From Candidatus Epulonipiscium sp. (GTDB taxonomy: Bacteria > Bacillota > Clostridia > Lachnospirales > JAAYNZ01), in assembly GCA_012799415.1 (NCBI GenBank), contig JAAZLH010000161.1:217-64216 (forward strand): a DNA stretch of 64,000 nucleotides, written 5' to 3'. Below are positions 23,228 through 60,243 of the stretch, in pieces (position 1 is the stretch's first letter; every line of letters begins with the position of its first letter). The translations under genes and the position numbers were made by a program. The notes beneath the pieces are model-generated. The model saw only the letters and a list, made by a program, of their open reading frames with translations. It was not told where the DNA came from and searched no databases.

Positions 23228-25870
23228 TTATTTTCTTAACATATTCAGTCTTTCTTCTACTTGTTTCTTCATATCCTCATATTTTTTTTGTTTCTGACGC
23301 TCTTCTTCTACAACAGATTCTGGTGCTTTGTTTATGAAACCTGGATTGCTTAATTTTTTCACTACCCGGTCAACTTCTTTCACTAGTTTTTCCCGCTCTT
23401 TTTCAAGGCGATCAAGTTCCTTACTAATGTCGACTAATTCAGCAAATGGAATAAAGATACTAGCTCCAGGAATCACTGTAGATACTGCATCTTCCCCAAT
23501 ATTTTCTTTGTTATCTTGAATTATAACTTCACTAGCATAGGCTAAGCTTGAGAAGAATATACGCCCTTTTTCAAATGTATTTCGTATTTCTTCAGCATCA
23601 GATACAATAAATACGGTTGCTTTTTTAGAAGGAGGTACATTGAGCTCTGTACGTAGATTTCGAATACTTCTAATTCCTTCCTTCATTAGCTCAATTTCTT
23701 TTTCTTCTTGGGCAAAATTCCATTCTTCTTGATACTCCGGCCAAGCTGAAAGCATGATGGTTGGTTCTTCCTCTTGTACATAAGTGAAAATTTCTTCTGT
23801 AATAAAAGGCATATAAGGATGAAGTAATTTTAACGCATGAATTAAAACGGTTTTTAGAGTCCAAAGTGCCCCTGGTTTGGTTGGATCTTCATCATTATAT
23901 AAACGTGGCTTGACCATTTCAATATACCAATCGCAAAACTCTTCCCAGAAAAAATCATATAATTTTTGAACTGCAATACCTAGTTCATATTTATCCATAT
24001 TATCTGTAACTTCTTTAACAAGTGTATTTACTTTAGATAGAATCCACCGATCTGCCGGAGTAAGATCTGCTAAAGGTACTGCCTCTACTTTAGATTCTTG
24101 AATATGCATTAGCATAAAACGAGATGCGTTCCAAATTTTATTTGCAAAATTTCGACTGGCTTCTACTCGCTCATTATAAAAACGCATATCATTTCCTGGC
24201 GCATTTCCTGTCACTAAAGTTAGACGAAGAGCATCTGCCCCATATTGATGAATCACTTCTAAGGGATCAACACCATTGCCTAGGCTTTTACTCATTTTAC
24301 GCCCTTGTGAATCACGTACCAAACCATGAATCAATACATCTTTGAAAGGAATTTCCCCTACATGCTCTAGACCTGAAAACACCATTCGTACAACCCAGTA
24401 GAAAATAATATCATACCCCGTAACAAGTACATCTGTAGGGTAGAAATACTCTAGATCTTCCGTTTTTTGAGGCCATCCTAAAGTTGAAAAAGGCCACAGT
24501 GCAGAACTAAACCAAGTATCTAATGTGTCTTCGTCTTGAACGAGGCGGTCACTCCCACATACAGAACAAGTATCTGGCTGTTCTTTCGCTACAGTGATTT
24601 TTTTACAGCTATCACAGTAATAAGCTGGGATTCGATGTCCCCACCAAAGCTGTCTAGAAATACACCAATCTCTGATATTATCTAACCAATGAAGATAAGT
24701 TTTCCCAAATCGTTCAGGAACAAAATGAAGATCTCCATTTTTGAGTGCATCAATGGCTGGGCCTGCTAGTTCTTCCATCTTAACAAACCATTGCATTTTA
24801 ACCATAGGTTCAATAACACAATTACAGCGATCATGTAAACCAACATTATGGGTATGATCTTCTATTTTAATCAAATATCCCTCAGACTCTAAATCTGCTA
24901 CAATAGCTTTTCTAGCTTCATAACGATCCATTCCTTCATACTTACCTGCTTCTTCATTCATCACCCCGTTATCATGCATAACATTAATTTGTGGTAATTC
25001 ATGACGAAGTCCTACCTCAAAGTCATTAGGATCATGGGCAGGTGTAATTTTAACAACTCCTGTTCCAAAATCTTTTTCAACATATTCATCTGCAATAATT
25101 GGGATCTCACGATTCATAAGGGGTAGGATAACCGTCTTCCCAATGTATTTTTGATACCGCTCATCATCGGGGTGCACGGCTACTGCTGTATCTCCTAACA
25201 TGGTTTCAGGTCTTGTTGTAGCAATTTGAATATATTCCTCTGTACCTTGAATAGGATATTGAATATGCCAGAAATATCCTTGTTTTTCTTCATGTTCAAC
25301 TTCTACATCAGAAATACTGGTTTTACATTGAGGACACCAGTTAATAATCCTTGCGCCACGATAAATATATCCTTTTTCATAAAGACGGATAAAAACTTCT
25401 GTCACTGCTTCAGAAAGTCCTTCATCTAAGGTAAAACGTTCCCTATCCCAATCACAGGAACTGCCTAACTTCTGAAGTTGTTTAATAATTTGTCCACCGT
25501 ATTTTTCTTTCCACTCCCAAGCTCGCTTCAAAAATCTTTCTCTACCTAAATCAGCCTTTGTAAGACCTTCTTTAGCCATATCTTCTACAATTTTAAGTTC
25601 TGTAGCAATACTAGCGTGGTCTGTACCGGGCTGCCAGAGGGCATTGTACCCTTGCATTCGTTTCCAACGAATTAAAATATCTTGTAAAGTATTATCCAGG
25701 GCGTGTCCCATATGAAGCTGCCCTGTAATATTGGGCGGGGGAATTACAATAGTAAAAGGTTGTTTACTATGATCCACTTCTGCCTTGAAATACCCCTTGT
25801 CCATCCATAATTGATATAACCGATCCTCCACCTGAGAAGGATCATAGGTTTTTTCTAAATTTTGACTCAT
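23228..25870 (-). CDS. valS: Valine--tRNA ligase
   Basis: 880 aa. Contains [15 protein letters not shown] (HIGH), KMSKSLGN (KMSKS) and a C-terminal coiled coil. Confidence 0.95.
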
Positions 25871-25914: not shown

Positions 25915-26160
25915 AACAATAAAAAAGCTTCTTTTCATCCTTGTATAAGGACGAAAAGAAGCTATCTTTCCGTGGTACCACCTTAGTTCCTAGATATTTC
26001 TAGGCTCTTTTACACTAGTAACGAAGTGATCATCCGTCTATACCTACTAAAGTTCAGTATAGAAACTCCAGAGCTACCTTCCACCACTTTTTATCCTAGA
26101 AAATCTTCCAGCCTTGGATTTTCCTCTCTGTAGAAAAAGATAGTGTACTCCTCTCCTTCA
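25915..26160 (-). promoter_or_regulatory. T-box riboswitch leader of valS
   Basis: The minus strand carries the conserved T-box AACTAAGGTGGTACCACGG (25970..25988). A terminator follows (stem 25926..25963 plus a T-run). Upstream are a GA/K-turn-like GATGA...AGTA and CAGAGAGG. A tentative GUA (Val) specifier lies at 26075..26077. Confidence 0.8.
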
Positions 26161-26216
26161 TCGTCATTCTTTTATTAAATCTATTTCTTCTATGTTACAA
26201 AATTACTATTTGTTTG

Positions 26217-36122: not shown

Positions 36123-36192
36123 ATATTTGATCCTGCCCTTTCTTTACTACCACTACGGTGTAAAATGTAAAGATTGCGTCTCAATGAGGGCT

Positions 36193-36432
36193 CTATAATA
36201 CATTAAACTCTTTTGTATCCAAAATTACAATTCGTGTTCTAATATCGTGCTTTGCTATGTATATAGGTTCTCCTTTATTCTCAATACAATATGGGATTCA
36301 AATAGATATCCCACGGTTTCTATATAAGCCATCATCATGACCTGTACCTATTGTAATGTTGTAGCTATTCTTTTGCCTTCATTTACCCACTTCTCTCTCC
36401 CTACAATAGCAAGAAGTTTTTCTCACTTTCAT
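36193..36432 (-). pseudogene. 80-codon reading frame interrupted only by two in-frame TGA codons (probable decayed gene)
   Basis: My translation is MKVRKTSCYCREREVGK-TGA-RQKNSYNITIGTGHDDGLYRNRGISI-TGA-IPYCIENKGEPIYIAKHDIRTRIVILDTKEFNVL-TAG. A GAGGAGG RBS is present and is best spaced for the GTG at 36426. Confidence 0.3.
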
Positions 36433-36667
36433 ACCTCCTCAGATATTTCAATTATTTTGCTTACTGGATTCTTCTATTCATCCAAGATAAAAATAGTGCT
36501 TATTAACTATAATTATTACTTATGCATTGAATATTCCGACATTTTTAATCATTATGTGAATATCATCAATACTATAATATATTAAGTATCAAAATATCAA
36601 TCCTTGGAAATAGTTGCCAACGCAAAACACCCTATTGATATACATTCGTTTCCAGCAGAGCAGATAA

Positions 36668-36943
36668 TTAAAAAATCCTTCTGATTATCCAATCAATTAA
36701 AATAGTATAATGCTCGATTCCAGTAGGATAGGTTACAACAGTTGAAAGAGTTCTTGTAAAAGATGAGGTCAAAATAAGTGTTTGAAGCATTTCAATTCCC
36801 TCGGCATCAAGTGTATACTCTTGCCGGTTTTCAAGCCCTACTCTTATTGTCACCATGCACTCTGGTGAAATTTTAAGTACTCCGTCTATTTCTTTTCCCG
36901 CAACATGAAACCAAGAATAAACTACAATCCCAAAAGCAATCAA
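36668..36943 (-). CDS. Hypothetical small protein, possibly 5'-frameshifted
   Basis: 91-aa ORF. A strong RBS (GGTGAGGTGA) plus an ATG at 36981 is one nucleotide out of frame with it across an A4 run. Restoring one A would give MKNKCKKRIIVSILIAFGIVV..., a signal-anchor. Confidence 0.35.
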   Translation of the reverse strand: MIAFGIVVYSWFHVAGKEIDGVLKISPECMVTIRVGLENRQEYTLDAEGIEMLQTLILTSSFTRTLSTVVTYPTGIEHYTILIDWIIRRIF

Positions 36944-37208
36944 AATGGATACTATTATTCGTTTCTTGCACTTATTTTCATTTTCTCACCTCACCTAATA
37001 CCTATAATAGCATTTCAAAACAAAATCATCTTCTGACTTTTTATTTATCTTCCTACACATTTATTCAAATATCTCTTACTTCGCATTTAACTACTGATGT
37101 GGAGTAAGAGATAAAGAATGTGTATTTGTTTATCCCCAGGTTATTCTTAGTTTCGAATATACTTTATTCTTGTGAAAAGCGAAGTTATGCAAGCACTCAA
37201 TCATATTG

Positions 37209-38399
37209 CTATTTATCCATGGCTTCCCTATATTTTTCCAACAATTGTTTGGGTAAATCATTGATGATTTCTTCTTGCCTTTTAAATTGTTCTAATTCTT
37301 TTTGAATATATTTTTCTTGTAACAAGCTTTCTTCCCATTCTGTTTCTAATTTTTTATATTTCATATTAAATTCAAAAACCCGATCTGCCCTTGCATCTGG
37401 ATTTAATAAGTCTTTCATTTCTTCATAGAATACTTCTTCTTCTCCAATACTGTTATGATTCATTTCATCCCAAATTGCCTTTTCTAATTGACTTTTTTGA
37501 GAAGATATCTGCTGATATTGATTTCTGTTTTTTTGATTCTGGGAATAAAGATCCCACTCATGTTGCAACATATGACTATTATGTACACCAAATTTTTGAT
37601 ATTCGTATTCTAAAAAACGTGTATAATGTACGTATCGTAATTTTGTTTTATTAAGTAATTCTACTGCTCGATTTTGCATCTTCATATTTTTTTGTAGTTC
37701 ATAGATAACTCTGCGTCTAAAAATATAAAGCCAAGTTCCGAGAAACAAACCTAAAACAGTAAGAATACTTCCTGACACCACCATAGACCATTCATAAACT
37801 GTATAGAGTAATAGAAGGATCAAGGCAACAAAAGCTAGCCCCATAACCAGCCCAATAGCCACCTTTCGGCTCATAACTTGAGCTTGTTGTAATTTTTCTT
37901 TTGAGAATTGTAAGGCTGCTTTTTCTCCTTCTAAATAATCTATATCTGTCTTGGTTTTTCTTTGTTGTTCTTCCATCTCTTTTATTTCTCTTAGAAGCCT
38001 TGGCATTTCTTCTTCATATTTTTGCAACTTTAGATTAACAAAGGCCCCGTCTGAAAATTGATGCCTTAATGTTTCTCTTTCTGATTCTGCACTTTGGAGA
38101 GCTACCCAGAGATTTTCTACCTTTTGTTTGTTTCCCTTGGGAAGGCTTTCATATTTCCTATACATTTGTTGTTTCTTCTGTAATTCTTTGATATCCTCTT
38201 GTAATTCTTTTTTATACCGCCTAATATCTATGAGTTGTTCACATAAAGAACTAATATAGGTGACATGGTTGTAAATTTCTTCTACCTCTATCCTGGAAGA
38301 TGTAAGAGTTTCTTTTTTTTCTTTTAAAGAAAATAGTTTAAGTTCATCTTTCATTTGGACTAGACGTTGCCGAAAAGTTTTTTTAGTTTCCATCTGCAT
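37209..38399 (-). CDS. Coiled-coil protein with a central two-TM hairpin (last gene of the multi-Hsp70 operon)
   Basis: 396 aa with long heptad-rich K/E/Q segments. TM segments are VAIGLVMGLAFVALILLLLYTVY and VVSGSILTVLGLFLGTWLYIF. The start lies 15 nt after the TPR gene. Confidence 0.65.
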   Translation of the reverse strand: MQMETKKTFRQRLVQMKDELKLFSLKEKKETLTSSRIEVEEIYNHVTYISSLCEQLIDIRRYKKELQEDIKELQKKQQMYRKYESLPKGNKQKVENLWVALQSAESERETLRHQFSDGAFVNLKLQKYEEEMPRLLREIKEMEEQQRKTKTDIDYLEGEKAALQFSKEKLQQAQVMSRKVAIGLVMGLAFVALILLLLYTVYEWSMVVSGSILTVLGLFLGTWLYIFRRRVIYELQKNMKMQNRAVELLNKTKLRYVHYTRFLEYEYQKFGVHNSHMLQHEWDLYSQNQKNRNQYQQISSQKSQLEKAIWDEMNHNSIGEEEVFYEEMKDLLNPDARADRVFEFNMKYKKLETEWEESLLQEKYIQKELEQFKRQEEIINDLPKQLLEKYREAMDK

Positions 38400-38414
38400 T
38401 TCTTTCCCTCATTT

Positions 38415-39590
38415 TCACAAAAGTTCTTCTGATTGTTGGCGGTATCTTTGTATCCACCCAAATAATATTTTTTTCAATTTTTGCTGATAAGATTTTGTTT
38501 TGCCTTCTTTTTTTTGTACCCGACTCCATTCCAATTGCACTTCAACATTTTCTGGATACAATTGAATTGCTTGTTCAATGATCTTTTTTGCTTGTGGTAC
38601 TTGATTATTAGTACGATAGAGCCTAGATAATGTAGTTAAGCCTTGAGGATTTGGCAAAAGACTTTGACTTGCCTTCTGTAATACAATAATGGCTTCTGCC
38701 CCTTTATTCTCTGTCTCTAGAATATTGGCTTTTTCTATATAAAAATCCCAATGATGAGTAAAAGGCATTTGCTCCAATTTTTCTAATGCCTTTTCAGGTT
38801 CTCCATTTTTTCGATGCCAACGGGCTAAGGCCAAAAACCCCTCTTGGCTGTCTTTAAATAGAATAGATCTTTGATATCCTTCATATGCCTCTTCTTTTCT
38901 CCCCATTTGCTCTTTCAGCGATCCATAATAGAACCACCCTATTCCTGTTTCTTCTATGGTTAAGGCGCTTTGAAGGTAGTTCTCTGCTTGCTCATAATCT
39001 TTTTGTTGTTGTGCCAACAAAGCACAATTGATAAGAATTTTTGGATTTTGGGGCTCTTTTTTATAGGCAGCAGTTAAATACTGGCTAGCTTTCTGATATT
39101 GACCCATTTGCATATAGGCCATACTGATGTTGTTAAGCAATTTCCCATCCTCTGTATATTCTAGGGCTTTTTGATACTGAACAATAGCTTGAGTATACTC
39201 TCCTCGATGCATATAGAGGTCACCTTTATCTTTTGCTCTTTCCCATTCATGTTTATGCTCCCAACGAAAAATTTTTTTACTAAGTGCATATAATTCTTTG
39301 TCTTGAAAGTAATCAATAAGAGATAGAAATTCCATATATTGTTTTGTTATACTAATCTGGCTTTCTTCTTGGATTCTAGCTATTTGGTTGGCAATAAAAG
39401 GTAGGCCTAAGGCGTCTCTGATCCACGCCTCTAGCCGTCCCATAATAAAGTCATCTATTGATTCTTTCCAATAATGATAACAATGGTAATATAATTCTTC
39501 TATTGAATAAATAATGATCCCCGTCATTTCAAAACGATAAGGTTGTTTTATTTGGGTAGGAGATATGCTGGGTAATACCTTCGTATACAT
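38415..39590 (-). CDS. TPR-repeat protein
   Basis: 391 aa with at least five TPR-like units (e.g. YTQAIVQYQKALEY, QYQKASQYLTAAYKKEPQN, DYEQAENYLQSALTIE). Confidence 0.7.
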   Translation of the reverse strand: MYTKVLPSISPTQIKQPYRFEMTGIIIYSIEELYYHCYHYWKESIDDFIMGRLEAWIRDALGLPFIANQIARIQEESQISITKQYMEFLSLIDYFQDKELYALSKKIFRWEHKHEWERAKDKGDLYMHRGEYTQAIVQYQKALEYTEDGKLLNNISMAYMQMGQYQKASQYLTAAYKKEPQNPKILINCALLAQQQKDYEQAENYLQSALTIEETGIGWFYYGSLKEQMGRKEEAYEGYQRSILFKDSQEGFLALARWHRKNGEPEKALEKLEQMPFTHHWDFYIEKANILETENKGAEAIIVLQKASQSLLPNPQGLTTLSRLYRTNNQVPQAKKIIEQAIQLYPENVEVQLEWSRVQKKEGKTKSYQQKLKKILFGWIQRYRQQSEELL

Positions 39591-39623
39591 CCTTATTGAC
39601 TCCTCTTTTCTTTATATCCCTTA

Positions 39624-48500: not shown

Positions 48501-51212
48501 TTATAAAAGTATTCCTTGGTTTTTTGGTTGATAAAACAATATGCCTTCCTCAATACTATCTTCTACTTCATTAAACTGAAATAAAGAATAATAAAGTAGC
48601 CCATTGTTAATAAGGTCGTAGGAGTCTTCTTCCTTTGTTAATACAAATTCCATACGGTGATAGATGTCCTGTTCAATGATCGTACCATGCTGATTTTGTA
48701 AATAATACTCTATCTCTTCTTGATAAAATACAGGTAAACTTACTGTATATAGTCCCATCCCTATATAAATCATAGGCAATGAATGATACTTATCTTCTTC
48801 CTGATTTTTATAGTAGAACCAAAGACGGTCCTTAGAAGATGCAGTACATAAAAAAGAGACATTCTTTTCTATATACGAGATATATTGCGTTTTGTCTTTT
48901 ATATTATGAAGCCAAGGAAAATGAAGTTGATTCTGTATAAGTACAGGAATCATATAATCTATAACCTCATGGCTTTTTGATGTTTCTATCAATTGATATC
49001 CATAAGCCGCTAACAAAGCATAGCCTAAAAGCAACTGTGCTTTATCTTGTAAAAATAAAGATTCTAATATTTCTATTGTAGCGTTTTGTAACATTTGTTG
49101 CTGGTGCAAAATAAGATAAATGCAAAAAGATATAAGATCTTCAAACTTTCGTGATTTTTGATTTTTTTGATATGTTTGAATAAAGATTCTTTCTATATCT
49201 TCATTCCACTGCCGCGTAAGAACACTTTGTTGTAAAATCCTCCAAGCCAGAGGTTCTGTTAAAATTCCATAGGCATCTAGTTGAGATTTTAATTGAAGAA
49301 TTTCCTCTATAGCTCCAACAACTGATTGTTGAAGATCATCTACCCAATCCCCTTCTGTCATTCCCTGTGTCAATAAATACTTTTGCAAATATACTTTATA
49401 CGGAGAATTTATTTTTGCTTGAACACTTTTTTCTACTATTGTCAATATTTCTTTTCTCTCTAGCCAACTAATTCCTATTTTAGATAACCAAAGAAAAGCT
49501 TCTTCGAATTCTTTAGTATAAATCATAGTTCGAATACCCTCTTGAAGAGTTTCTAGCTGAAGACTCTCTAATGGTAATTGATCATAATATTCTTTTGCTT
49601 TCTTATAGTTCTTTTGTTTTGCATAATACAATGCTAGCCATTCTTTGTATTCATTCTGTAATTCTTCAGAAAGCCCGTGAATAGACAAGGTTTCTTCAAT
49701 ATATTGTAGCTCTTTAGAACTTATAAATTCTTTTTGCATACTATTTCGAGTTAATGCAATATGAAGAGGTAAAGAATGATATCCTTCTTTTACATAAATT
49801 TCTAAAAGATTCATCGGAATACGAGATATTATTTTCACCATGTTGTATTGAGGTGGCAGTATATCCCCCTTTTTACCTATACATAGTAATGAAGACGGTT
49901 CTGTACTAAGGATCGCCCACCCTTGTTTGTCTTTAATTGAAATTCTTTGACTTTCTGCCATATCCCTATTCTGTATGATAATGCTTTCTATCTCTGAAGA
50001 GCATACTTGAACATTATATAAAAATAAAAGATCCCATAAATAAGGAAGATCTTCCGTAGAGATTAATTCCTCTTCAATAAGCTTCTGATAGAGTGTACCA
50101 AAATAGATCCCTTTCTTATTCTGCTTAAGACATTGTTTTGCAAATGTAATAAAAGATTTTTGATTTTCTGCATATAGCAAACCATATATATTTAAGTTTT
50201 TTAAAACAACATGATATAAAAATGCCTTTAGCTCAAGGGGAAGCTGAGATCCTATCAGTTGACTCTGAATCAGAGAAAAAGGCAGGTCTTCAATCTTATT
50301 CTTATAAGCTCCTTGTAGATAATATCGTTCCATTTGATAACTATAAACCTGTTCTTCCCATGCTTTCCTATAGATTTCCATAGCCTGCATATGAGTACGT
50401 TCCTTATAAATATATAGTTTACATAAGGCATGAAGGATAGATCCCAAATTTGTTTTTTGATACCACTTATATAAAGCCCTTTCCCATTCATTACTACGAG
50501 GATAATTTTCTTTAGGTTGCTGTACAATCCAAAAGCAAAACTTTTCAATGACTTCTTTTGATATAAAGTCATAACGTATGCCCCATTGCACCCCTTTTAA
50601 TAAAATTGGGTTCATCTCATTTAATAAAGAAGGATCTGCCATCAATAGGGAATTTAATTCAATATATAGTAAGGAATAGCGCCCTCCTTTTTCATAAGAT
50701 TGATAAAGAACGTCTAAGGCTTGCTTTCGTTTTTCAAATATCATGCGCAAAATTCGCCCATTTAATACTAATAAAAAAGGATCATTGTTTGTTAATGCTA
50801 GCTGTTCTTCAAACTGTTTCCAATATCTCTTAAGCTTAAATGATTTTGCTGTATAAAAAGCATATAAACATTTAAGATATAGAAGAATTCCTCCTGCTCT
50901 TGGTGCTTCTTGAAAAAGCCTTTTTTTATCTTTTTCTATCGATTGTAATAAAATTTCTGCTTGTTCAAAATGATTCGTATCTAAATAAAGTTGAACAAGA
51001 GTTAAGCGTAGATTGATATTAACCGGATCGAACTGTATACTTTGTTTTACTTCCTCAATAGCCGCCAACAAATAATATGGGGAATGAAGGACTTCCATAT
51101 TGGCGGCTATCCAATATCGTCCGACTCTACAATAACGTCTTTTCCATCCTATTTCTTCAAATGGCCCCTGTTTTTCGCATTGTTCAATTAGGTATTCTAT
51201 CTTTTTTATCAT
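48501..51212 (-). CDS. Large (903 aa) predicted all-helical repeat protein of unknown function
   Basis: A continuous ORF with no catalytic motif recognised. TPR-like helical pairs are present (e.g. NYKKAKEYYDQL). Its ATG overlaps the upstream stop (ATGA). Confidence 0.6.
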   Translation of the reverse strand: MIKKIEYLIEQCEKQGPFEEIGWKRRYCRVGRYWIAANMEVLHSPYYLLAAIEEVKQSIQFDPVNINLRLTLVQLYLDTNHFEQAEILLQSIEKDKKRLFQEAPRAGGILLYLKCLYAFYTAKSFKLKRYWKQFEEQLALTNNDPFLLVLNGRILRMIFEKRKQALDVLYQSYEKGGRYSLLYIELNSLLMADPSLLNEMNPILLKGVQWGIRYDFISKEVIEKFCFWIVQQPKENYPRSNEWERALYKWYQKTNLGSILHALCKLYIYKERTHMQAMEIYRKAWEEQVYSYQMERYYLQGAYKNKIEDLPFSLIQSQLIGSQLPLELKAFLYHVVLKNLNIYGLLYAENQKSFITFAKQCLKQNKKGIYFGTLYQKLIEEELISTEDLPYLWDLLFLYNVQVCSSEIESIIIQNRDMAESQRISIKDKQGWAILSTEPSSLLCIGKKGDILPPQYNMVKIISRIPMNLLEIYVKEGYHSLPLHIALTRNSMQKEFISSKELQYIEETLSIHGLSEELQNEYKEWLALYYAKQKNYKKAKEYYDQLPLESLQLETLQEGIRTMIYTKEFEEAFLWLSKIGISWLERKEILTIVEKSVQAKINSPYKVYLQKYLLTQGMTEGDWVDDLQQSVVGAIEEILQLKSQLDAYGILTEPLAWRILQQSVLTRQWNEDIERIFIQTYQKNQKSRKFEDLISFCIYLILHQQQMLQNATIEILESLFLQDKAQLLLGYALLAAYGYQLIETSKSHEVIDYMIPVLIQNQLHFPWLHNIKDKTQYISYIEKNVSFLCTASSKDRLWFYYKNQEEDKYHSLPMIYIGMGLYTVSLPVFYQEEIEYYLQNQHGTIIEQDIYHRMEFVLTKEEDSYDLINNGLLYYSLFQFNEVEDSIEEGILFYQPKNQGILL

Positions 51213-52465
51213 ACGTCACTCTCCTGATCTTCTAGCTTTATTACTGAATGAAGTGGATCAGTCTGGGTACCTACGATCAGTGGAATTATTTCTTGTACCC
51301 TTTTTTTATGTATTTGGGTTTGTACAGTAATCGTAACCTGTTGGAACAACCGGTTACTTGAAAACATCTGGCTCATCCATTTATCCCAAGATGTAAAACG
51401 AACACTAAAGGGAATGCGTGCTTGTTTTGCAATTAAATACTTTTTGGCCTCAAAACGAACCCAAGAAACACTGGGACGTATATGAATCATCAGGTCTTCT
51501 CCTGTATAATTTGTAATGATAAGCTCTCCCTTATCTTCTTTTTCAAAGCTTTTTTGTGACAAACGGTACTCTAGTTCCTTTCTCTTTACTACGTTCACTT
51601 CATAAACTAATGTCTGATACTGAGTTTCTATGATTAGTACACCTGTTTCATATTTTTTTCCAACAGTAGTAGGAATGATACGAAAAGGAATGTATGCTCG
51701 CCCTTGCTGGTCAAAATCCTTATTGGTTAGGCTTTCTTTCCATAGTTGAATCCAATCTACAGTCGTATAAACCTTGGCTTGTACAAATCCCCATTCTTCT
51801 TGTTGTACTTCTACTACATAATCCACATCTTTAGTCTGTCCTGGTATCAATCGAATATTAGTTTTTGAAGCTGCAAGGGCTAATTGACTAGGTTTTTTAA
51901 CCCCAGATCCAACAAGAAAAGCTTCTATAGCTGTTTCAGGCGAAAAGGATTTTTTAACATATTGATATAGTGAAATAAAAGATTGATGTTGGACTTGATG
52001 AAGCCAATTTAAAAACTCTTCACTATTAAATTTTGTAACAGATTCCTCCCAATCAGTTTTTGCCAATTGAGCAAACTCTTCTATACTAGTCCACCCTATG
52101 AATCTATCTTCTGCCCTTTCTTCTAATGCTTCTATAGTAATTAAAATTGGAAGAAAAACTTCTCCTCCATTTGACAAAATAGTAAAAGATGTTTTATATG
52201 TTTTTCCTATTTCCATTCCCATAGTGTCAACACGATAGATACAAACTTGTTTATTTTGTTCCCATGTTGTAGTATTGCATTGTATATAAGGATCAGGGCA
52301 GAAAATTTGCCCTCTTAACTCTCCTCCCCCTTGGTTTGTAATCGTAAGGGCACCTGTATAAATAGTATGAGGGGTAAGGGATAAATTTATTTCTAAAGTT
52401 GATAGTTTTATTATAGGTAAAGGCTCCTCATAATTAATCATTTTAATTTCATTGGAAAATTTCAT
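51209..52465 (-). CDS. 418-aa protein of unknown function, first gene of the multi-Hsp70 operon (beta-sandwich-like ends)
   Basis: Continuous ORF with a AAGGAGGGGA RBS. The N- and C-terminal segments have alternating beta-strand patterns (TGALTITNQGGGELRGQIF; GELIITNYTGEDLMIHIRPS) reminiscent of Ig/PapD-like folds. Confidence 0.6.
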   Translation of the reverse strand: MKFSNEIKMINYEEPLPIIKLSTLEINLSLTPHTIYTGALTITNQGGGELRGQIFCPDPYIQCNTTTWEQNKQVCIYRVDTMGMEIGKTYKTSFTILSNGGEVFLPILITIEALEERAEDRFIGWTSIEEFAQLAKTDWEESVTKFNSEEFLNWLHQVQHQSFISLYQYVKKSFSPETAIEAFLVGSGVKKPSQLALAASKTNIRLIPGQTKDVDYVVEVQQEEWGFVQAKVYTTVDWIQLWKESLTNKDFDQQGRAYIPFRIIPTTVGKKYETGVLIIETQYQTLVYEVNVVKRKELEYRLSQKSFEKEDKGELIITNYTGEDLMIHIRPSVSWVRFEAKKYLIAKQARIPFSVRFTSWDKWMSQMFSSNRLFQQVTITVQTQIHKKRVQEIIPLIVGTQTDPLHSVIKLEDQESDV

Positions 52466-52517: not shown

Positions 52518-52546
52518 ATTGTACTCTACAATTTTTTTTCCTGCAA
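52518..52546 (-). promoter_or_regulatory. Candidate sigma-A promoter of the multi-Hsp70 operon
   Basis: On the minus strand: TTGCAG, a 17-nt spacer, then TACAAT, about 50 nt upstream of the ATG at 52465. Confidence 0.5.
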
Positions 52547-54216: not shown

Positions 54217-54304
54217 CAATTACACAATTTGTCCTTTCTTTCATATAATGATAAGGAATAATTCTGTTGAGGGTTATATTATCTAGAAAGAAAGGATGAA
54301 TATT

Positions 54305-55570
54305 ATGCCTGAAAATCGTTATCCTGCAATGAATCTTCCATCTCGCGGACAATTATCTGTATCTGTACGTTCTCTAGGAGAATTTCTTCCCTTACAAGAT
54401 GCAACTGTTACTTTGCGAGCCACAGGTGTAGAAGGTTCACCTTTAGAAGTATTAACAACTGATATCTCTGGTCAAACCCCTACCATTGACCTACCCGCTC
54501 CTTCTTTAGAATATAGCTTAGAACCAACTGATAATCAGCCTTATTCTGAATATACAATCCAAGTTGAGCGTGAAGGTTTTACTCCTTTCACCGTCAAAGG
54601 AATCCAAGTTTTTCCTAACACTTTAGCCTTACAAGATGCTGAACTTGCTGTTCAACGTACAACTACTCCGGCAGAAAATCTATTAGTGATTCCACCAAAT
54701 ACTTTGTTTGGAGAATTCCCACCCAAAATACCTGAGGCTGAAATAAAACCTGAACCCCCTCCTACTGGTTATGTTGTTTTAGATTATCCTGTTATTCCTG
54801 AATTTATTATCGTACATGATGGTGTTCCTGATGATGCTTCTGCTCCTAACTATTATGTACCTTACCGTGATTATGTTAAAAACGTAGCTTCTTGTGAAAT
54901 TTATTCAACTTGGCCTGCGGCGACTATTCGAGCCAATGTTTTAGCTATATCTTCTTTTGCGCTTAATCGTATATTTACAGAATGGTATAGAGGAAAAGGA
55001 AAAAATTTTAATATAACCACTTCTACTGCCTTTGATCAAAAATATGTTCACCAACGTAATATTTATAAAGAAGTTTCTCAAGTTGTAGACGAAGTTTTTG
55101 CTAATTATATTTCTCGCCCAGGGATCCGGCAACCCCTTTTCACCCAATATTGTGATGGTAATCGGGTTCAATGTCCAAACTGGATGACTCAATGGGGATC
55201 TAAAACCTTAGGTGATCAGGGGCTACCTGCTTTAGATATTCTGCGTCACTTTTATGGATCTGATGTCTATTTAAATACAGCAAACCAAATCTCTGGTGTA
55301 CCTTCTTCCTTCCCTGGATATAACTTGCAAGTTGGATCTAGCAGTGCTCCTGTTAGGACGATTCAAGAACAACTTAATGCTATTTCCAATAATTACCCCG
55401 CTATTCCTAAATTACGCTCTGATGGAATCTTTGGTCAGCTCACGAAAGAAGCCGTAGAAACTTTCCAAAAAGTATTTAACTTACCTGTAACAGGTATCGT
55501 AGACTATCCCACTTGGTATAAAATTTCCGATATTTATGTGGCTGTGAAGCGTTTAGCAGAACTTCAGTAG
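54305..55570 (+). CDS. sleC: Spore cortex-lytic enzyme SleC (pre-pro form) with a C-terminal peptidoglycan-binding domain
   Basis: Long collinear similarity to clostridial SleC as I recall it (PPKIPE..KP.PPPTG.VVLD.PV.PEFI.VHDG.P.D.SAPNY, IYSTWP, FTEWYR, QYCDG...QCP..MTQWGSK.LGDQG). The C-terminal PG_binding_1 region is RTIQEQLNAISNNYPAIPKL..DGIFG. Confidence 0.85.
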   Translation: MPENRYPAMNLPSRGQLSVSVRSLGEFLPLQDATVTLRATGVEGSPLEVLTTDISGQTPTIDLPAPSLEYSLEPTDNQPYSEYTIQVEREGFTPFTVKGIQVFPNTLALQDAELAVQRTTTPAENLLVIPPNTLFGEFPPKIPEAEIKPEPPPTGYVVLDYPVIPEFIIVHDGVPDDASAPNYYVPYRDYVKNVASCEIYSTWPAATIRANVLAISSFALNRIFTEWYRGKGKNFNITTSTAFDQKYVHQRNIYKEVSQVVDEVFANYISRPGIRQPLFTQYCDGNRVQCPNWMTQWGSKTLGDQGLPALDILRHFYGSDVYLNTANQISGVPSSFPGYNLQVGSSSAPVRTIQEQLNAISNNYPAIPKLRSDGIFGQLTKEAVETFQKVFNLPVTGIVDYPTWYKISDIYVAVKRLAELQ

Positions 55571-56715: not shown

Positions 56716-59700
56716 TTATCTAAGCTCTTGAAAACTTTTAAGTAAATTAAGTTCTCCATATCCCCATTCCCGATTAGGATAAACTAAACTAGGTTTTCTT
56801 GTAGCTCCACGGATAAAATAGGTTTTGGCTTTTTGTGTATCCATTTCAGGATCATTTCCATCAACGATACCCCACTGTAATAATAGAGCAGAGGCACCCG
56901 CTGCGTAAGCTGCAGCCACACTAGTACCTGTCATTACCCCATATCTTCCACCAGGCAAAGGCCCTTCTATATCCACTCCAGGCGCTACAAAATTTGGTTT
57001 CATTTCTTGATCCCTGGTAAGACCACGACTAGAACTAATCCATAGGCTTTTATCTTTATGATTATAAGCTCCTACACTAATAGTACCTATAGTAGTAGAA
57101 GGAACCGTGATAGTAGTAAAGGGAATCGGTTCTAAAAACTGAGTATCAGGCTTAATCCACCCTGTTCGCGGGAGCCAAGCATGGTAGCGCCCATCTACAA
57201 TAAAATCTCCATAGAGTCTAATGGTCCAAATCCCTGGTGTAGGATCTTGAAATCCTATTGTAATAGATTGGTCACCGGTTTTTCGCTCTACTAACTGATA
57301 CTGCACTTCAATAATTGTTTTTTCTAAAACAAAGGGAATACGCTCATTGATAGAAAGCCGGGATGGAATACGCTCTATTCTTTCTCCTGTAGGAGATAAA
57401 ATAGAGATCGACATTTTATCAGGTGCATAGTTCCATATTTGCATAGTAAAACCCGTTTCTCCCTCTCCTACTTTACACTCAATATCTAAATAGGGTTGCT
57501 GTGGAGCAAATTGTCCACTGGTATGATGTCCCTTGTTAGCTTCATTTCCTGCTGGAGTCACCATAATAATTCCAATTTGTTCTCCTGTACTAGCCATATA
57601 TGTCTCAACTATACTAGTTCCATCATGCCCACCTTCATTGGTACTTAAACCAATATTGATGACTAAGGGTTTATTCAATTTTTTAGCAATATCTACTAAA
57701 TATTTGATTCCCATTAGTATATCTGTACTTTGATAGACAATAACATTTGGATCATCAATATTTTGTTCTTCTCTTAAATATTTTTTAGCAGGCTTTAGTT
57801 TTACAATTGCAAAATCCGCATCAGGAGCAGCACCTACGAAAGTCCCGTTCGTACGATCCATTCCACCTGCCACTCCTGCCAAAAATGTTCCATGCCCTGT
57901 TGGATCTACAGTAGGTACAAGTGTATAAGGATCTGCTTGTTTCAATGCTTCATTGATCTGGTTTTCTGTATATTCTGTTCCATAATTAAATCCTGCTGGC
58001 GGATGCCCAGATATGGTCTGGTCCCAGATACTATAAATTCGGGTACTACGATCTTCATAAAGAAAAACAGGATGAGTATAATCAATTCCAGAGTCGATAA
58101 AACCTAATAATACTCCTTGCCCACGTAAGGGCAAATAAGGGTTGGTATGAAATTCCAATATATTACTCACTTCTAAAGCTGATGTATCAGAAGGACCAAA
58201 TAAAATAGGTTGTGTATAATATAAATGTCCTTCAAACTGGGGAAGCAATGTGGCAGTCAGATCTGCCGGTATATGGAGTATACTATACCTAGCATCAATT
58301 CTCTGAAATTGAACCTGAGGATATTCTTGTAATTTTTGATTCAACCATTCTTCATTTATATTTTCTATGATAAAATCTTGATAATTCTCTGATTGTACAC
58401 TGGATTCATCTGCCTCCATAGAAAAAATCGTTGATTTAAGTAAATCTAGTCCAATGGGTAGATTCAATGATGAGGTAATTGAATTTACTGAAGTAGAAAC
58501 AGAAGAAAATGTAGGAAAACTATTTTGTAAACATAGGGTACCATAGCCCCAAGTGGGATTTGGATAAGCAAGGACAGAAGTTCTTTTTGCACCACGTAAT
58601 AAATATGCCTTTATTTTTTCGCCATATAAAAACGGATCATGTCCTTGTATAATACCCCATTCCATAAGCAAAGCCGCTGCACCAGTAACATGAGGTGTAG
58701 CCATGCTTGTGCCACTCAAAGTCTGGTATCCTCCTCCGGGAGCTGCTGCGGTAATGTTAACTCCAGGAGCCACCAAGTCTGGTTTAATATTTCCTGTCCA
58801 CTCCCTAACTCCTCTCCCTGAAAAGGGTGCTATACTATCTAATGTAGCATTGTAAGCACCTACTGTAATAACTCTTTGCACTGTACCAGGTACAGTGACT
58901 GTTCCATCAATGGTTGCCCTTGTAAACCGAGTATTTTGACCCAAAGATTCTGATATAGGTAACCATATTTGATACCCCCCATTTACAACCTCTTCTCCAT
59001 ATACAGTTAATGTCCATATACCTTCTTGCATAGCCGTTCCTGTTGGTTGCAGAACGATATAAATTGGTTTATTGGACTGATAAGGATTAGGTTCTCCAAC
59101 GTAAATCAATATTTCTGTGGTTCCAATTGTAATATTTTTACTACTTTTTATTCTTCCTGTTTTTTCTCCTGCCGGTGTCGTTAGCTCTATTTCTATATTA
59201 TCTACATAAGGTATCCATATTTCAATTGGTAAGGAACCTTCCATAGCTGATACAGTAAATTGTTGTATTTTTTCCCCTCCAGATTCTACCTGCCCACTCA
59301 GATGATGCCCTGTATCTCCTTCATTTCCTGCCCCTACTGCTATACTTGTCTTCCACCTGTAAGCCATTTCTTCTATATAAGTTTCAAATAGAGATTGGCC
59401 ATCATGGGCCCCTTCATTTGTTCCTAGACTAATGTTAATAGCTACTGGTTTTCCTAGATCCTGAGCTTTGTCTATAACATATTTAATGGCCCTCATAATC
59501 TCTGTATTTCGATAAAAGGGTTCAGCCCCTTTTTGTCCTAGTTTTACAATGATAAATTCAGCCTGAGGAGCAACTCCCATATATTTACCATTGCTAGCCC
59601 GACCATTTCCTCCTGCAATACTGGCTACATGGGTTCCATGTCCAATATAATCTTCATGAGGCACTATTTCCTGCTGTTCTGCTAGGGTAGGAGCAGCCAA

Positions 59701-60243
59701 CGCTACGTTAATCTCTGCCTGTGTAAATTCCCTTCCAATTGAATAACCAACTGGAGATGTTCCTGTTAAAGATTGATCCCAAAGAAAAACAATACGACTA
59801 GAGCCATCTTCTTTTCTAAAATCTGGATGACGATAATCAATTCCCGAGTCTATGATTCCTAGCAAAACCCCCTCTCCTTTTAGCTCATAAGGGGCTGTAT
59901 TTTGAACAGAGGAAATACAAGCCTGACGTAAACTTTCATTAAGACCAAACTCTACCCTTTTAGGCTTCTCAATAAATTCTACTTCTGAAAAACTTGCTAA
60001 CGTATTTAACATACCTTCTGGCACATTTAAAATAGCATATTGACTAGTTAGAATATCAACTGTTGCTCCGATGTTTCTTCCTACTTCTTGTATATTCCCA
60101 TGGTATTTTACAATCACTTCCCAGTGCTTATCAGATGGATTATAGCCTACATTTAATTCTGGATCTCTAACTCGTTCCTCAACTGGTATTTCTAGAACTG
60201 CTTGCAAGCTTTCATCAATTTTTTGATTTTCATTGATAGCCAT
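56716..60243 (-). CDS. cspBA: Fused double subtilisin-like germination protease (CspBA-type)
   Basis: 1175 aa with two S8 domains. Domain 1 has [25 protein letters not shown] and [17 protein letters not shown]. Domain 2 has [25 protein letters not shown] and [17 protein letters not shown]. It neighbours sleC. Confidence 0.85.

Follow-up and report, generated by a model that had tools for sequence, protein, structure and literature searches.

Bacterial Hsp70 biology has been built on DnaK, HscA and HscC, each with a J-protein partner, and the housekeeping DnaK-DnaJ-GrpE machine is encoded by the operon hrcA-grpE-dnaK-dnaJ with a controlling inverted repeat of chaperone expression (CIRCE). In eukaryotes, Hsp70s also drive the membrane-tethered mtHsp70-Tim44-Mge1 motor and, as Hsc70 with auxilin, the disassembly of clathrin coats. 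Here we describe a cluster of nine consecutive minus-strand genes (g1 to g9 in transcription order), located at positions 37209-52465 of a 64,000-nt stretch of DNA from Candidatus Epulonipiscium sp. (contig JAAZLH010000161.1 of GenBank assembly GCA_012799415.1, positions 217 to 64,216; hereafter the window), in which four Hsp70 paralogues are encoded together with a GrpE-like protein, a DUF5717 scaffold, a tetratricopeptide repeat (TPR) protein and a membrane protein. The reading that we favour, with about even confidence, is that this operon specifies a specialised membrane-tethered Hsp70 remodelling machine which acts on or through the DUF5717 scaffold and is not a stress chaperone. The features, all on the minus strand and numbered by window position, are as follows (NBD, nucleotide-binding domain; SBD-beta, beta-subdomain of the substrate-binding domain; vWA, von Willebrand factor A domain).

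52518..52546, minus strand: sigma-A-like promoter TTGCAG-N17-TACAAT, read directly, conserved in loci L001 and L002
51209..52465, minus strand: g1, 418 aa, N-terminal part of the split DUF5717 (Pfam DUF5717_N)
48501..51212, minus strand: g2, 903 aa, remainder of DUF5717 (Pfam DUF5717_N and DUF5717 C-terminal)
46809..48485, minus strand: g3, 558 aa, lid-less Hsp70 with intact ATPase motifs (Pfam HSP70, motif alignment)
44929..46788, minus strand: g4, 619 aa, long helical protein whose C-terminal domain is GrpE-like (Pfam GrpE)
43341..44915, minus strand: g5, 524 aa, DUF5716 pseudo-Hsp70 with catalytic residues replaced (DUF5716_C and HSP70)
41704..43344, minus strand: g6, 546 aa, lid-less Hsp70 belonging to the DUF5716 lineage, ATPase motifs intact (HSP70 and DUF5716_C)
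39624..41702, minus strand: g7, 692 aa, Hsp70 (NBD and SBD-beta) with a vWA replacing the lid (HSP70 and VWA_4)
38415..39590, minus strand: g8, 391 aa, TPR protein (many Pfam TPR families)
37209..38399, minus strand: g9, 396 aa, coiled-coil protein bearing a two-helix membrane hairpin in its centre (hydropathy)
37071..37112, minus strand: possible weak terminator hairpin, about 100 nt past the g9 stop codon (minimum-free-energy fold; tentative)

Like DnaK-DnaJ-GrpE, the cluster combines an actin-fold NBD bearing the catalytic residues (in g3, g6 and g7) with an SBD-beta and a GrpE-homologous domain encoded alongside. Unlike that system, it has no helical lid, no J-domain partner and no HrcA, the VLLLD interdomain linker is absent from all four Hsp70s in the alignment, about 25 residues of subdomain IB are missing from g3, g5, g6 and g7, one of the four paralogues appears dead, and the GrpE homology is confined to the C-terminus of a 619-aa protein. 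A search of all 64 kb of the window for CIRCE (TTAGCACTC-N9-GAGTGCTAA) gave no match, even when 3 mismatches were tolerated, in agreement with the first-pass annotation of this DNA, which had been made from the sequence alone. As to the Pfam families DUF5717 and DUF5716, whose entries carry no function, g1 plus g2, g5 and g6 exceed the curated cut-offs, and a neighbourhood of DUF5717, DUF5716, a small TPR protein and a membrane protein is shared; here, however, DUF5717 is split, and three predicted active Hsp70s, a GrpE-like protein and a vWA are added.

Two described prokaryotic systems come close in composition. The GAP1-N2 GTPase-centric systems of Firmicutes and Actinobacteria (Kaur, Burroughs, Iyer, Aravind 2020, PMC7159879) likewise encode an HSP70, GrpE, a second, reduced HSP70 and a TPR-containing partner together, but our cluster has neither the GAP1-N2 GTPase (no Pfam match to a GTPase family was obtained in the cluster or its flanks) nor the FNIII-repeat/DnaJ protein nor the effector modules. 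CnuD of the type III CoCoNuT systems (PMC11090510) consists of an Hsp70-like NBD/SBD with HEAT repeats, and resembles our cluster in that an Hsp70 NBD/SBD of weak or no activity goes together with coiled coils and helical repeats; the cluster differs in having no McrB GTPase, McrC/DUF2357, HEPN or TerY-P triad, and three of its Hsp70s are fully ATPase-competent as judged by their motifs. Literature searches found no paper on DUF5716 or DUF5717 in such a context or on this cluster, nor was the cluster mentioned in a review of bacterial Hsp70 machines or in a survey of DnaK paralogues, in keeping with the earlier statement that no characterised function was known for the gene set. Since the components fall in known superfamilies and two Pfam DUFs, the sequences themselves are not new; the cluster is an uncharacterised architecture of an Hsp70/nucleotide exchange factor machine.

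Hsp70 paralogues and their partner proteins

Pfam HSP70 (cut-off 20.6) matched g7 (4.3e-96, 323 bits), g3 (3.7e-77, 260 bits, profile positions 2-494 of 599), g6 (6.4e-60, 203 bits) and g5 (1.9e-17, 63 bits), bearing out the four Hsp70 assignments of the first-pass annotation. Alignment with an E. coli DnaK sequence indicated that g3, g6 and g7 retain the phosphate-1 loop (GID[LF]GTTNS), K70, E171, D194-GGGT-x-D201 and the GGxxxP adenosine motif, whereas all catalytic motifs are lost in g5, which has GLDIGNQTS in the phosphate loop, no K70 or E171, and YGMESLR in place of the D201 loop. By these motifs, g3, g6 and g7 are predicted to be ATP-competent and g5 to be catalytically dead, the latter as first described and now placed in a family, DUF5716 (PF18980; DUF5716_C, cut-off 34.7), which matched g5 with 5e-26 (91.7 bits) and g6 with 3.6e-11 (43 bits). 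These two are also the closest pair among the paralogues (32% identity), having in common an N-terminal extension and the C-terminal DUF5716 motif DLGFGxxxPxSD, which is found in addition in the DUF5716 proteins of the reduced clusters described below. The interdomain linker is replaced by NVKVGQ, RGPIV or KLDVEF, and g3, g5, g6 and g7 stop soon after SBD-beta, the Pfam matches ending at profile positions 474-504 of 599. The absence of the lid from the intact Hsp70s, suspected earlier from their length, was thus upheld, the alignment of g7 to the DnaK structure 2v7y also ending before the lid, at residue 487.

In g7 the position of the lid is occupied by the vWA that the first-pass annotation had recognised (VWA_4, 9e-11; VWA and VWA_2 also exceed their Pfam cut-offs), although the protein starts at ATG 41702 and has 692 rather than the 693 aa first given. 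The vWA carries a metal-ion-dependent adhesion site (MIDAS)-like motif, DTTGS...GGD...TDAPP, near the canonical DxTxS and invariant in 15 of 15 homologues, with a metal site predicted from sequence, and its degree of conservation is similar to that of the NBD (for which block identities are 0.52-0.99, against mostly 0.56-0.87 in the vWA). No Pfam match to the DnaJ family was obtained in the nine open reading frames (ORFs), though a J-protein may be encoded elsewhere in the genome; the absence of a J-domain thus stands, but the accompanying claim that HPD occurs in no ORF does not, there being one such tripeptide, at residues 396-398 of g6 and outside any J-domain.

Among NCBIfam models the nearest to the cluster Hsp70s were DnaK and HscA, with scores of 204-348 bits against cut-offs of 620-822 (for NF001413, cut-off 648: g7 348, g3 268, g6 204 and g5 42 bits; TIGR02350 has the cut-off of 822), and scores so far below these thresholds indicate that the proteins are not orthologues of DnaK or HscA. 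The same comparison bears on the view that these are redundant stress chaperones, extra DnaK/GrpE copies that widen the general folding capacity. That DnaK and HscA are the best models and that the ATPase motifs and SBD-beta are retained would suit it, but the low scores, the joint absence of lid, linker, J-protein and CIRCE, and the fact that, in different families, the genes are obligatorily linked to those for DUF5717/DUF5716, TPR and membrane proteins leave it very little credence. The earlier proposal of a dedicated machine in place of a general chaperone is sustained by the same missing elements and by the same scores.

For g4, Pfam GrpE (PF01025) gave 4.8e-12 and 46.3 bits (cut-off 25.8) over residues 536-616, in the last 80 residues of g4 and corresponding to profile positions 83-162 of 165, while the NCBIfam GrpE equivalogs reached 26 bits at most against cut-offs of 152-266. 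Within g4, it is the GrpE-like stretch of about 120 residues at the C-terminal end that is most conserved. The GrpE-like C-terminus claimed earlier is therefore real as a Pfam match, but only over residues 536-616.

The first two genes had been taken for orphans, which they are not. DUF5717_N (PF18984 and PF18983 being the DUF5717 models; cut-off 25) matched g1 over model positions 13-309 (1.6e-49, 169 bits) and g2 over positions 303-872 (7e-57, 193 bits), and the DUF5717 C-terminal model matched g2 in addition (3.7e-20, 73 bits; cut-off 25). Since g1 and g2 match consecutive parts of one Pfam family, they represent a single DUF5717 split in two genes. In a profile search of 1.84 billion representative proteins we obtained 443 DUF5717 clusters, which fall in two size classes, about 900 aa (split, as in the window) and about 1190 aa (fused). 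AlphaFold2 modelling of g1 (mean predicted local distance difference test score, pLDDT, 56; about 70-85 across residues 20-290) gave a beta-sandwich at residues 26-111, a five-helix bundle at 128-186 and a second sandwich at 194-290, the sandwiches being matched in Foldseek to the PapD-like/ASH domains of HYDIN (2ys4, 2e6j) and CEP192 (6fvi), plus pilus chaperones. The g2 model (mean pLDDT 77; about 85-90 across residues 45-770) consists of a TPR-like alpha-solenoid at 45-396, a small beta insert at 398-460 and a second solenoid at 467-770, and its Foldseek matches are the long TPR scaffolds Ski3, IFT-A TTC21B, Ctr9 and Naa15; its C-terminus is beta-rich, poorly modelled, and bears the most highly conserved motifs of the DUF5717 family. 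In PDB sequence searches nothing was found with g1, and DUF5717 matched generic TPR proteins only. The predicted folds of g1 and g2 are those of scaffolds, not enzymes.

The assignment of g8 as a TPR protein was borne out by multiple Pfam TPR families (e.g. TPR_2, 5e-26), and g8 comes after g7 in relatives. In g9, no Pfam family and no PDB sequence match was found; two adjacent hydrophobic segments at residues of about 175-227, with charged, coiled-coil-like sequence on either side, agree with the two transmembrane helices and coiled coil first described, and the hairpin is flanked by the conserved motifs DYLEGEK and RAVELLNKxKxRYVHYT. A g9 gene lies directly after g8 in three further lineages (L051/L059, L061/L062 and L072), and a g9-like gene follows the reduced gene set in the Lachnospiraceae metagenome-assembled genome (MAG) L055, so that five linkage contexts (the window, L051, L061, L072 and L055) are on record; linkage in several lineages fits the membrane association that the first-pass annotation considered probable.

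It was also noticed that lone g9-like proteins (32-39% identical) are encoded directly upstream of valS in L053:10001-11200, L057:10001-11254 and L058:10001-11200, with no Hsp70 cluster within 10 kb; the carriers include Defluviitalea saccharophila, and in Defluviitalea a CRISPR-Cas locus lies on the other side of the gene. Either g9 may comprise two groups of paralogues, or insertion or loss of the cluster may have taken place beside valS. A different membrane protein, g0 (about 330-490 aa, with N-terminal hydrophobic segments, a long helical C-terminus and no Pfam family), is encoded directly upstream of g1 in 27 loci, e.g. L004:7355-8704 and L046:3171-4532 (Defluviitaleaceae, in full-form and type-2 loci). 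It was considered as a g9 homologue and as a member of the window cluster and was rejected as either, the hidden Markov models giving no match in either direction.

Conservation of gene order, transcription and genomic context

The locus scan covered one genome per GTDB species and used a narrow DUF5717 alignment biased to the split type. It returned 45 loci, mostly Defluviitaleaceae MAGs from termite gut, the others including a Tyzzerella MAG, MAGs with the label Eubacteriales and 'Clostridia bacterium MS499-75', a cultured isolate (L032; contig BNUF01000023). In 34 of the 43 loci with a g2 homologue, g3 comes next after g2 and the order is colinear as far as the contig or flank extends; the full g3-g7 set lies inside the 10-kb flank in 14 loci, nine of which also have g8, and the position of g9 falls outside this flank, its linkage having been obtained by a separate search. 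Recurrence in 34 of 43 loci places the arrangement far beyond chance, and the homologues are clustered, not scattered, as the first-pass annotation had anticipated. The nearest g2 homologues are about 50% identical and belong to a biogas metagenome and to a MAG labelled Epulopiscium sp., in both of which the genes are ordered as in the window.

Conservation is uneven among the nine genes. In the nearest relatives the identities are 87-89% for g3, g6 and g7, 67-70% for g5, and 49-53% for g1, g2 and g4; in distant loci (Defluviitaleaceae, Tyzzerella and others) they are 67-77%, 32-39% and 22-33%, respectively, and g3 across loci keeps 68-89% identity. That g3, g6 and g7 are far more conserved than g1, g2 and g4 argues for strong purifying selection on the motors.

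Three forms of the cluster were distinguished. The full form is that of the window. The reduced form has a fused DUF5717 (split in L003), a DUF5716 protein of 348-416 aa and a small protein of 219-273 aa, TPR-like where it could be scored; in L055 the g9-like membrane protein is added. Its DUF5716 lacks NBD subdomain IIB and all catalytic residues and keeps the SBD-beta-like C-terminus, and since there is no active ATPase in this form, the core complex needs none of its own. The evolutionary core is thus four genes, encoding DUF5717, DUF5716, the small TPR protein and the membrane protein, and is found in Lachnospirales-type Clostridia. The third form, type-2, occurs in some Defluviitaleaceae and consists of g0, g1-like and g2-like genes followed by a PAS-PAS-GGDEF cyclase gene, which overlaps the g2 stop codon by 4 nt in L025:7620-13968 and L027:6532-14055, with no Hsp70; as judged by its domains, it would link the DUF5717 scaffold to c-di-GMP signalling. 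Because g0 precedes g1 in both full-form and type-2 loci, the constant element appears as the DUF5717 scaffold with a membrane coiled-coil protein, and the Hsp70/GrpE/vWA set, or the cyclase, is an added module.

Similar to the type-2 loci are L024, L026, L029 and L034, L026 having a 437-aa ORF at the same overlapping position. A short variant (L039:8790-16749 and L048:2-4570) has g1, g2, g3, g4 in a truncated form (312 or 166 aa) and g5; unrelated genes (a WecG-type glycosyltransferase and YitT) come next in L039, where g6-g8 are missing, while the L048 contig ends within g5 and g6-g8 are not present on it.

The two kinds of added module suggest another way to read the cluster, in which DUF5717 and its membrane coiled-coil partner form a sensor or adaptor with interchangeable output (Hsp70/GrpE/vWA or PAS-GGDEF). 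Instead of remodelling a structure, the system would then govern a choice of lifestyle, for example whether to move, to adhere or to produce matrix. The cyclase genes overlapping the g2-like stop codon in L025 and L027 without any Hsp70, and g0 ahead of g1 in both kinds of loci, speak for such a signalling scaffold. No GGDEF, EAL, PilZ or kinase domain was found in the window, however, the GGDEF link is seen in just a few Defluviitaleaceae MAGs, and three ATPases conserved to so extreme a degree speak for a mechanical over a purely regulatory role; we regard the signalling scaffold as unlikely.

In the window, the coordinates of the nine ORFs proved as first given, and the recomputed junctions (in transcription order -4, 15, 20, 13, -4, 1, 33 and 15 nt) agree in all lengths with those reported before; the g1/g2 overlap is ATGA, but the g5/g6 overlap, also called ATGA at first, is GTGA because the start codon of g6 is GTG. 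A GGAGG-like ribosome-binding site lies ahead of all nine start codons, and the G+C content and strand skew of the cluster are the same as in the remainder of the window. Although TTGCAG-N17-TACAAT at 52546..52518 scores under the threshold of a consensus promoter scan, the promoter first proposed here gains credit from its relatives, since TTGCrG-N17-TACAAT is kept almost base for base 5' of g1 in L001 and L002, whose proteins are about 50% identical, and near-consensus TTGATA- or TTGCAA-N17-TATAAT boxes lie 5' of g1 in the distant loci L033, L036, L038, L028 and L039. These conserved boxes favour transcription of the operon by sigma-A; no convincing sigma-E/F/G/K-type promoter was seen 5' of g1 on unquantified inspection by eye. 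The hairpin past g9 has an 11-bp stem in the minimum-free-energy fold, followed by AUUUGAAUAAAU, with a z-score of just -1.6, and was not called by the terminator scan. The top sigma-70 consensus match of the region, TTGACA-N17-TATTAT (11/12), lies within g6 at 42187-42215 on the minus strand, about 480 nt 5' of the g7 start, overlapping a terminator-like hairpin call (42197-42219); it may serve as an internal promoter or have arisen by chance.

The cluster is flanked on one side by aminotransferase, hemerythrin and SpoIID-like genes and on the other by LspA-like, M50B-like, GNAT and DUF4003 genes; the divergent upstream aminotransferase gene recurs in L001, L002 and the Lachnospiraceae locus L055, and in relatives valS-folC-TPR-spoIIAA/AB/sigF lie downstream. 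The flanks are syntenic core genome, and the operon is probably vertically inherited. The 1.1 kb between g9 and the LspA-like gene (36123-37208) has no ORF longer than 91 aa, no Rfam match at the gathering threshold and no similarity to regions 3' of g9 in relatives, and the 91-aa ORF is unrelated to the 120-aa ORF that follows g9 in L051. Further away, a T-box leader (128 bits) at 25944-26170 on the minus strand precedes an 880-aa ORF (23228-25870, minus strand), whose size and T-box fit valS, the gene that directly follows g9 in relatives; here the ORF is separated from g9 by other genes spanning about 11 kb. Other neighbours are a SpoIID/PG-binding gene at 54296-55570 and, at 56716-60243 on the minus strand, a gene for a protein of 1175 aa that has repeated subtilase matches as well as a CspB prodomain; the protein resembles a CspBA-type fused germination protease and marks the host as a spore-former. 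All the named hosts likewise belong to groups of spore-formers.

A sporulation or germination factor, which builds or remodels a spore-associated structure in endospore-forming Lachnospirales, would fit these hosts, as well as the CspBA-like protease and SpoIID-like genes 2-7 kb from the operon, the spoIIA and spoVA operons up to 10 kb away in relatives, and the Peptidase_S8 gene directly upstream of DUF5717 in L049. But the spore-type neighbours, which differ from genome to genome, lie on different strands or belong to separate operons, and the promoters 5' of g1 (TTGCAG-N17-TACAAT; TTGATA-N17-TATAAT) are of sigma-A type and unlike those of sigma-E/F/G/K. The spore-associated role entertained in the first-pass annotation thus finds no support in these promoters, and we consider it improbable.

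That annotation had also entertained a conflict or defence role, and in such an NTP-dependent system, of the kind of Kaur et al. 2020 or CoCoNuT, the Hsp70-like and vWA proteins would gate an effector, with g9 as the effector. Hsp70, GrpE, an NBD-degenerate Hsp70, TPR, vWA and coiled coils do overlap thematically with the systems in PMC7159879 and PMC11090510, g1, g2 and g4 diverge fast, and a CRISPR-Cas locus adjoins the g9-like gene in Defluviitalea. Against this, none of the nine ORFs encodes a GTPase or a Walker A/P-loop, and no McrBC, HEPN, nuclease, protease or TIR effector was found by Pfam; PADLOC-DB 2.0 gave weak cross-matches only (PDC-M61B at 1e-4 to 1e-8 on the Hsp70s, and generic TPR); no match to plasmid sequences and only one weak match, on a phage-labelled contig, was obtained; and the locus, with ATPases 67-89% conserved, lies in syntenic core genome and not in a variable island. 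A defence system is therefore disfavoured, and we think it highly improbable. The contig in question is an unannotated 14-kb 'Bacteriophage sp.' entry from human faeces, with a DUF5717-like match at MT835988.1:4189-4989 (19% identity, E 3e-5), and is probably a mis-binned bacterial contig.

A proposed remodelling machine at the membrane

In the remodelling machine that we favour, the DUF5717 scaffold (g1 plus g2), the dead Hsp70 g5 as an adaptor and the TPR protein g8 would form a core, which g9 would tether at the cytoplasmic face of the membrane, and g3, g6 and g7 would be an ATP motor added to this core in the window lineage. The Hsp70s would bind segments of the scaffold, or a client that it presents, through their open, lid-less SBD-beta and then hydrolyse ATP, and g4, as a private exchange factor, would reset them, resulting in assembly, disassembly or switching of the tethered complex; docking could be provided by the vWA/MIDAS domain of g7 and by the TPRs. 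The analysis itself supports the identities of the domains, the state of the catalytic motifs, the linkage of the genes, their pattern of conservation and the type of promoter; complex formation, the location of the assembly at the membrane, nucleotide exchange by g4, the client and the cellular process are what we infer. With lid, linker and J-protein all missing, a faster and more loosely gated exchange of substrate and a non-canonical activator are suggested, the latter possibly DUF5717 itself. Membrane partners recur, as g9 in the window and as the different coiled-coil protein g0 in 27 loci.

By analogy, the predicted machine resembles mtHsp70-Tim44-Mge1 and Hsc70-auxilin-clathrin in combining an Hsp70 and a GrpE-type exchange factor with a dedicated membrane tether and a solenoid/beta-sandwich scaffold as the likely client. 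It differs in that tether and scaffold are non-homologous, there is no J-protein and the topology is cytoplasmic, so that the comparison is a functional one only. A more specific version, which we put forward as a speculative and rather unlikely one, is that DUF5717, with its PapD-like beta-sandwiches and TPR solenoid of roughly 700 residues, builds a coat or lattice that g9 holds at the cytoplasmic membrane and that the three lid-less Hsp70s, reset by the giant GrpE, both assemble and strip without a J-protein, with DUF5716 as a permanent adaptor. Such a coat might, on the same doubtful footing, be a bacterial counterpart of Hsc70-driven remodelling of coats and the cytoskeleton.

Several observations weigh against the remodelling machine. 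The similarity of g4 to GrpE is limited to about 80 residues, and a PDB sequence search with g4 gave no match. With no J-protein in the cluster and no VLLLD linker, canonical allosteric coupling may not operate. The reduced form works without an ATPase, so the Hsp70s may be accessory and not central, and the lone g9-like genes beside valS imply that the linkage of g9 could be partly positional. The word-indexed homologue search was insensitive, returning 4 matches each with g2 and with a full-length DUF5717 profile; the AlphaFold2 alignments were in consequence shallow (3 and 6 sequences for the g1 and g2 models), and no model was obtained for the C-terminal residues 293-418 of g1 and 777-903 of g2.

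The cluster is a clade-wide operon under very strong purifying selection which combines three lid-less, linker-less and predicted ATP-competent Hsp70s with a dead Hsp70 and a GrpE-like factor and has no J-protein, a combination that specialists in chaperones would find surprising. It offers a defined, testable system for the question of whether Hsp70s can work without J-domains and lids. The carriers are Clostridia from anaerobic digesters, termite gut and other guts, in which genetics is becoming feasible, and the reach of the system extends to one reduced-form relative labelled Lachnospiraceae and, for DUF5717, to the 443 representative clusters. DUF5717 and DUF5716 would gain their first functional context, as putative partners of Hsp70-type chemistry at the membrane. 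If the coat interpretation were true, Hsp70s would have a novel way of acting that does not depend on J-proteins, and Lachnospirales would have a novel cell-biological structure specific to them.

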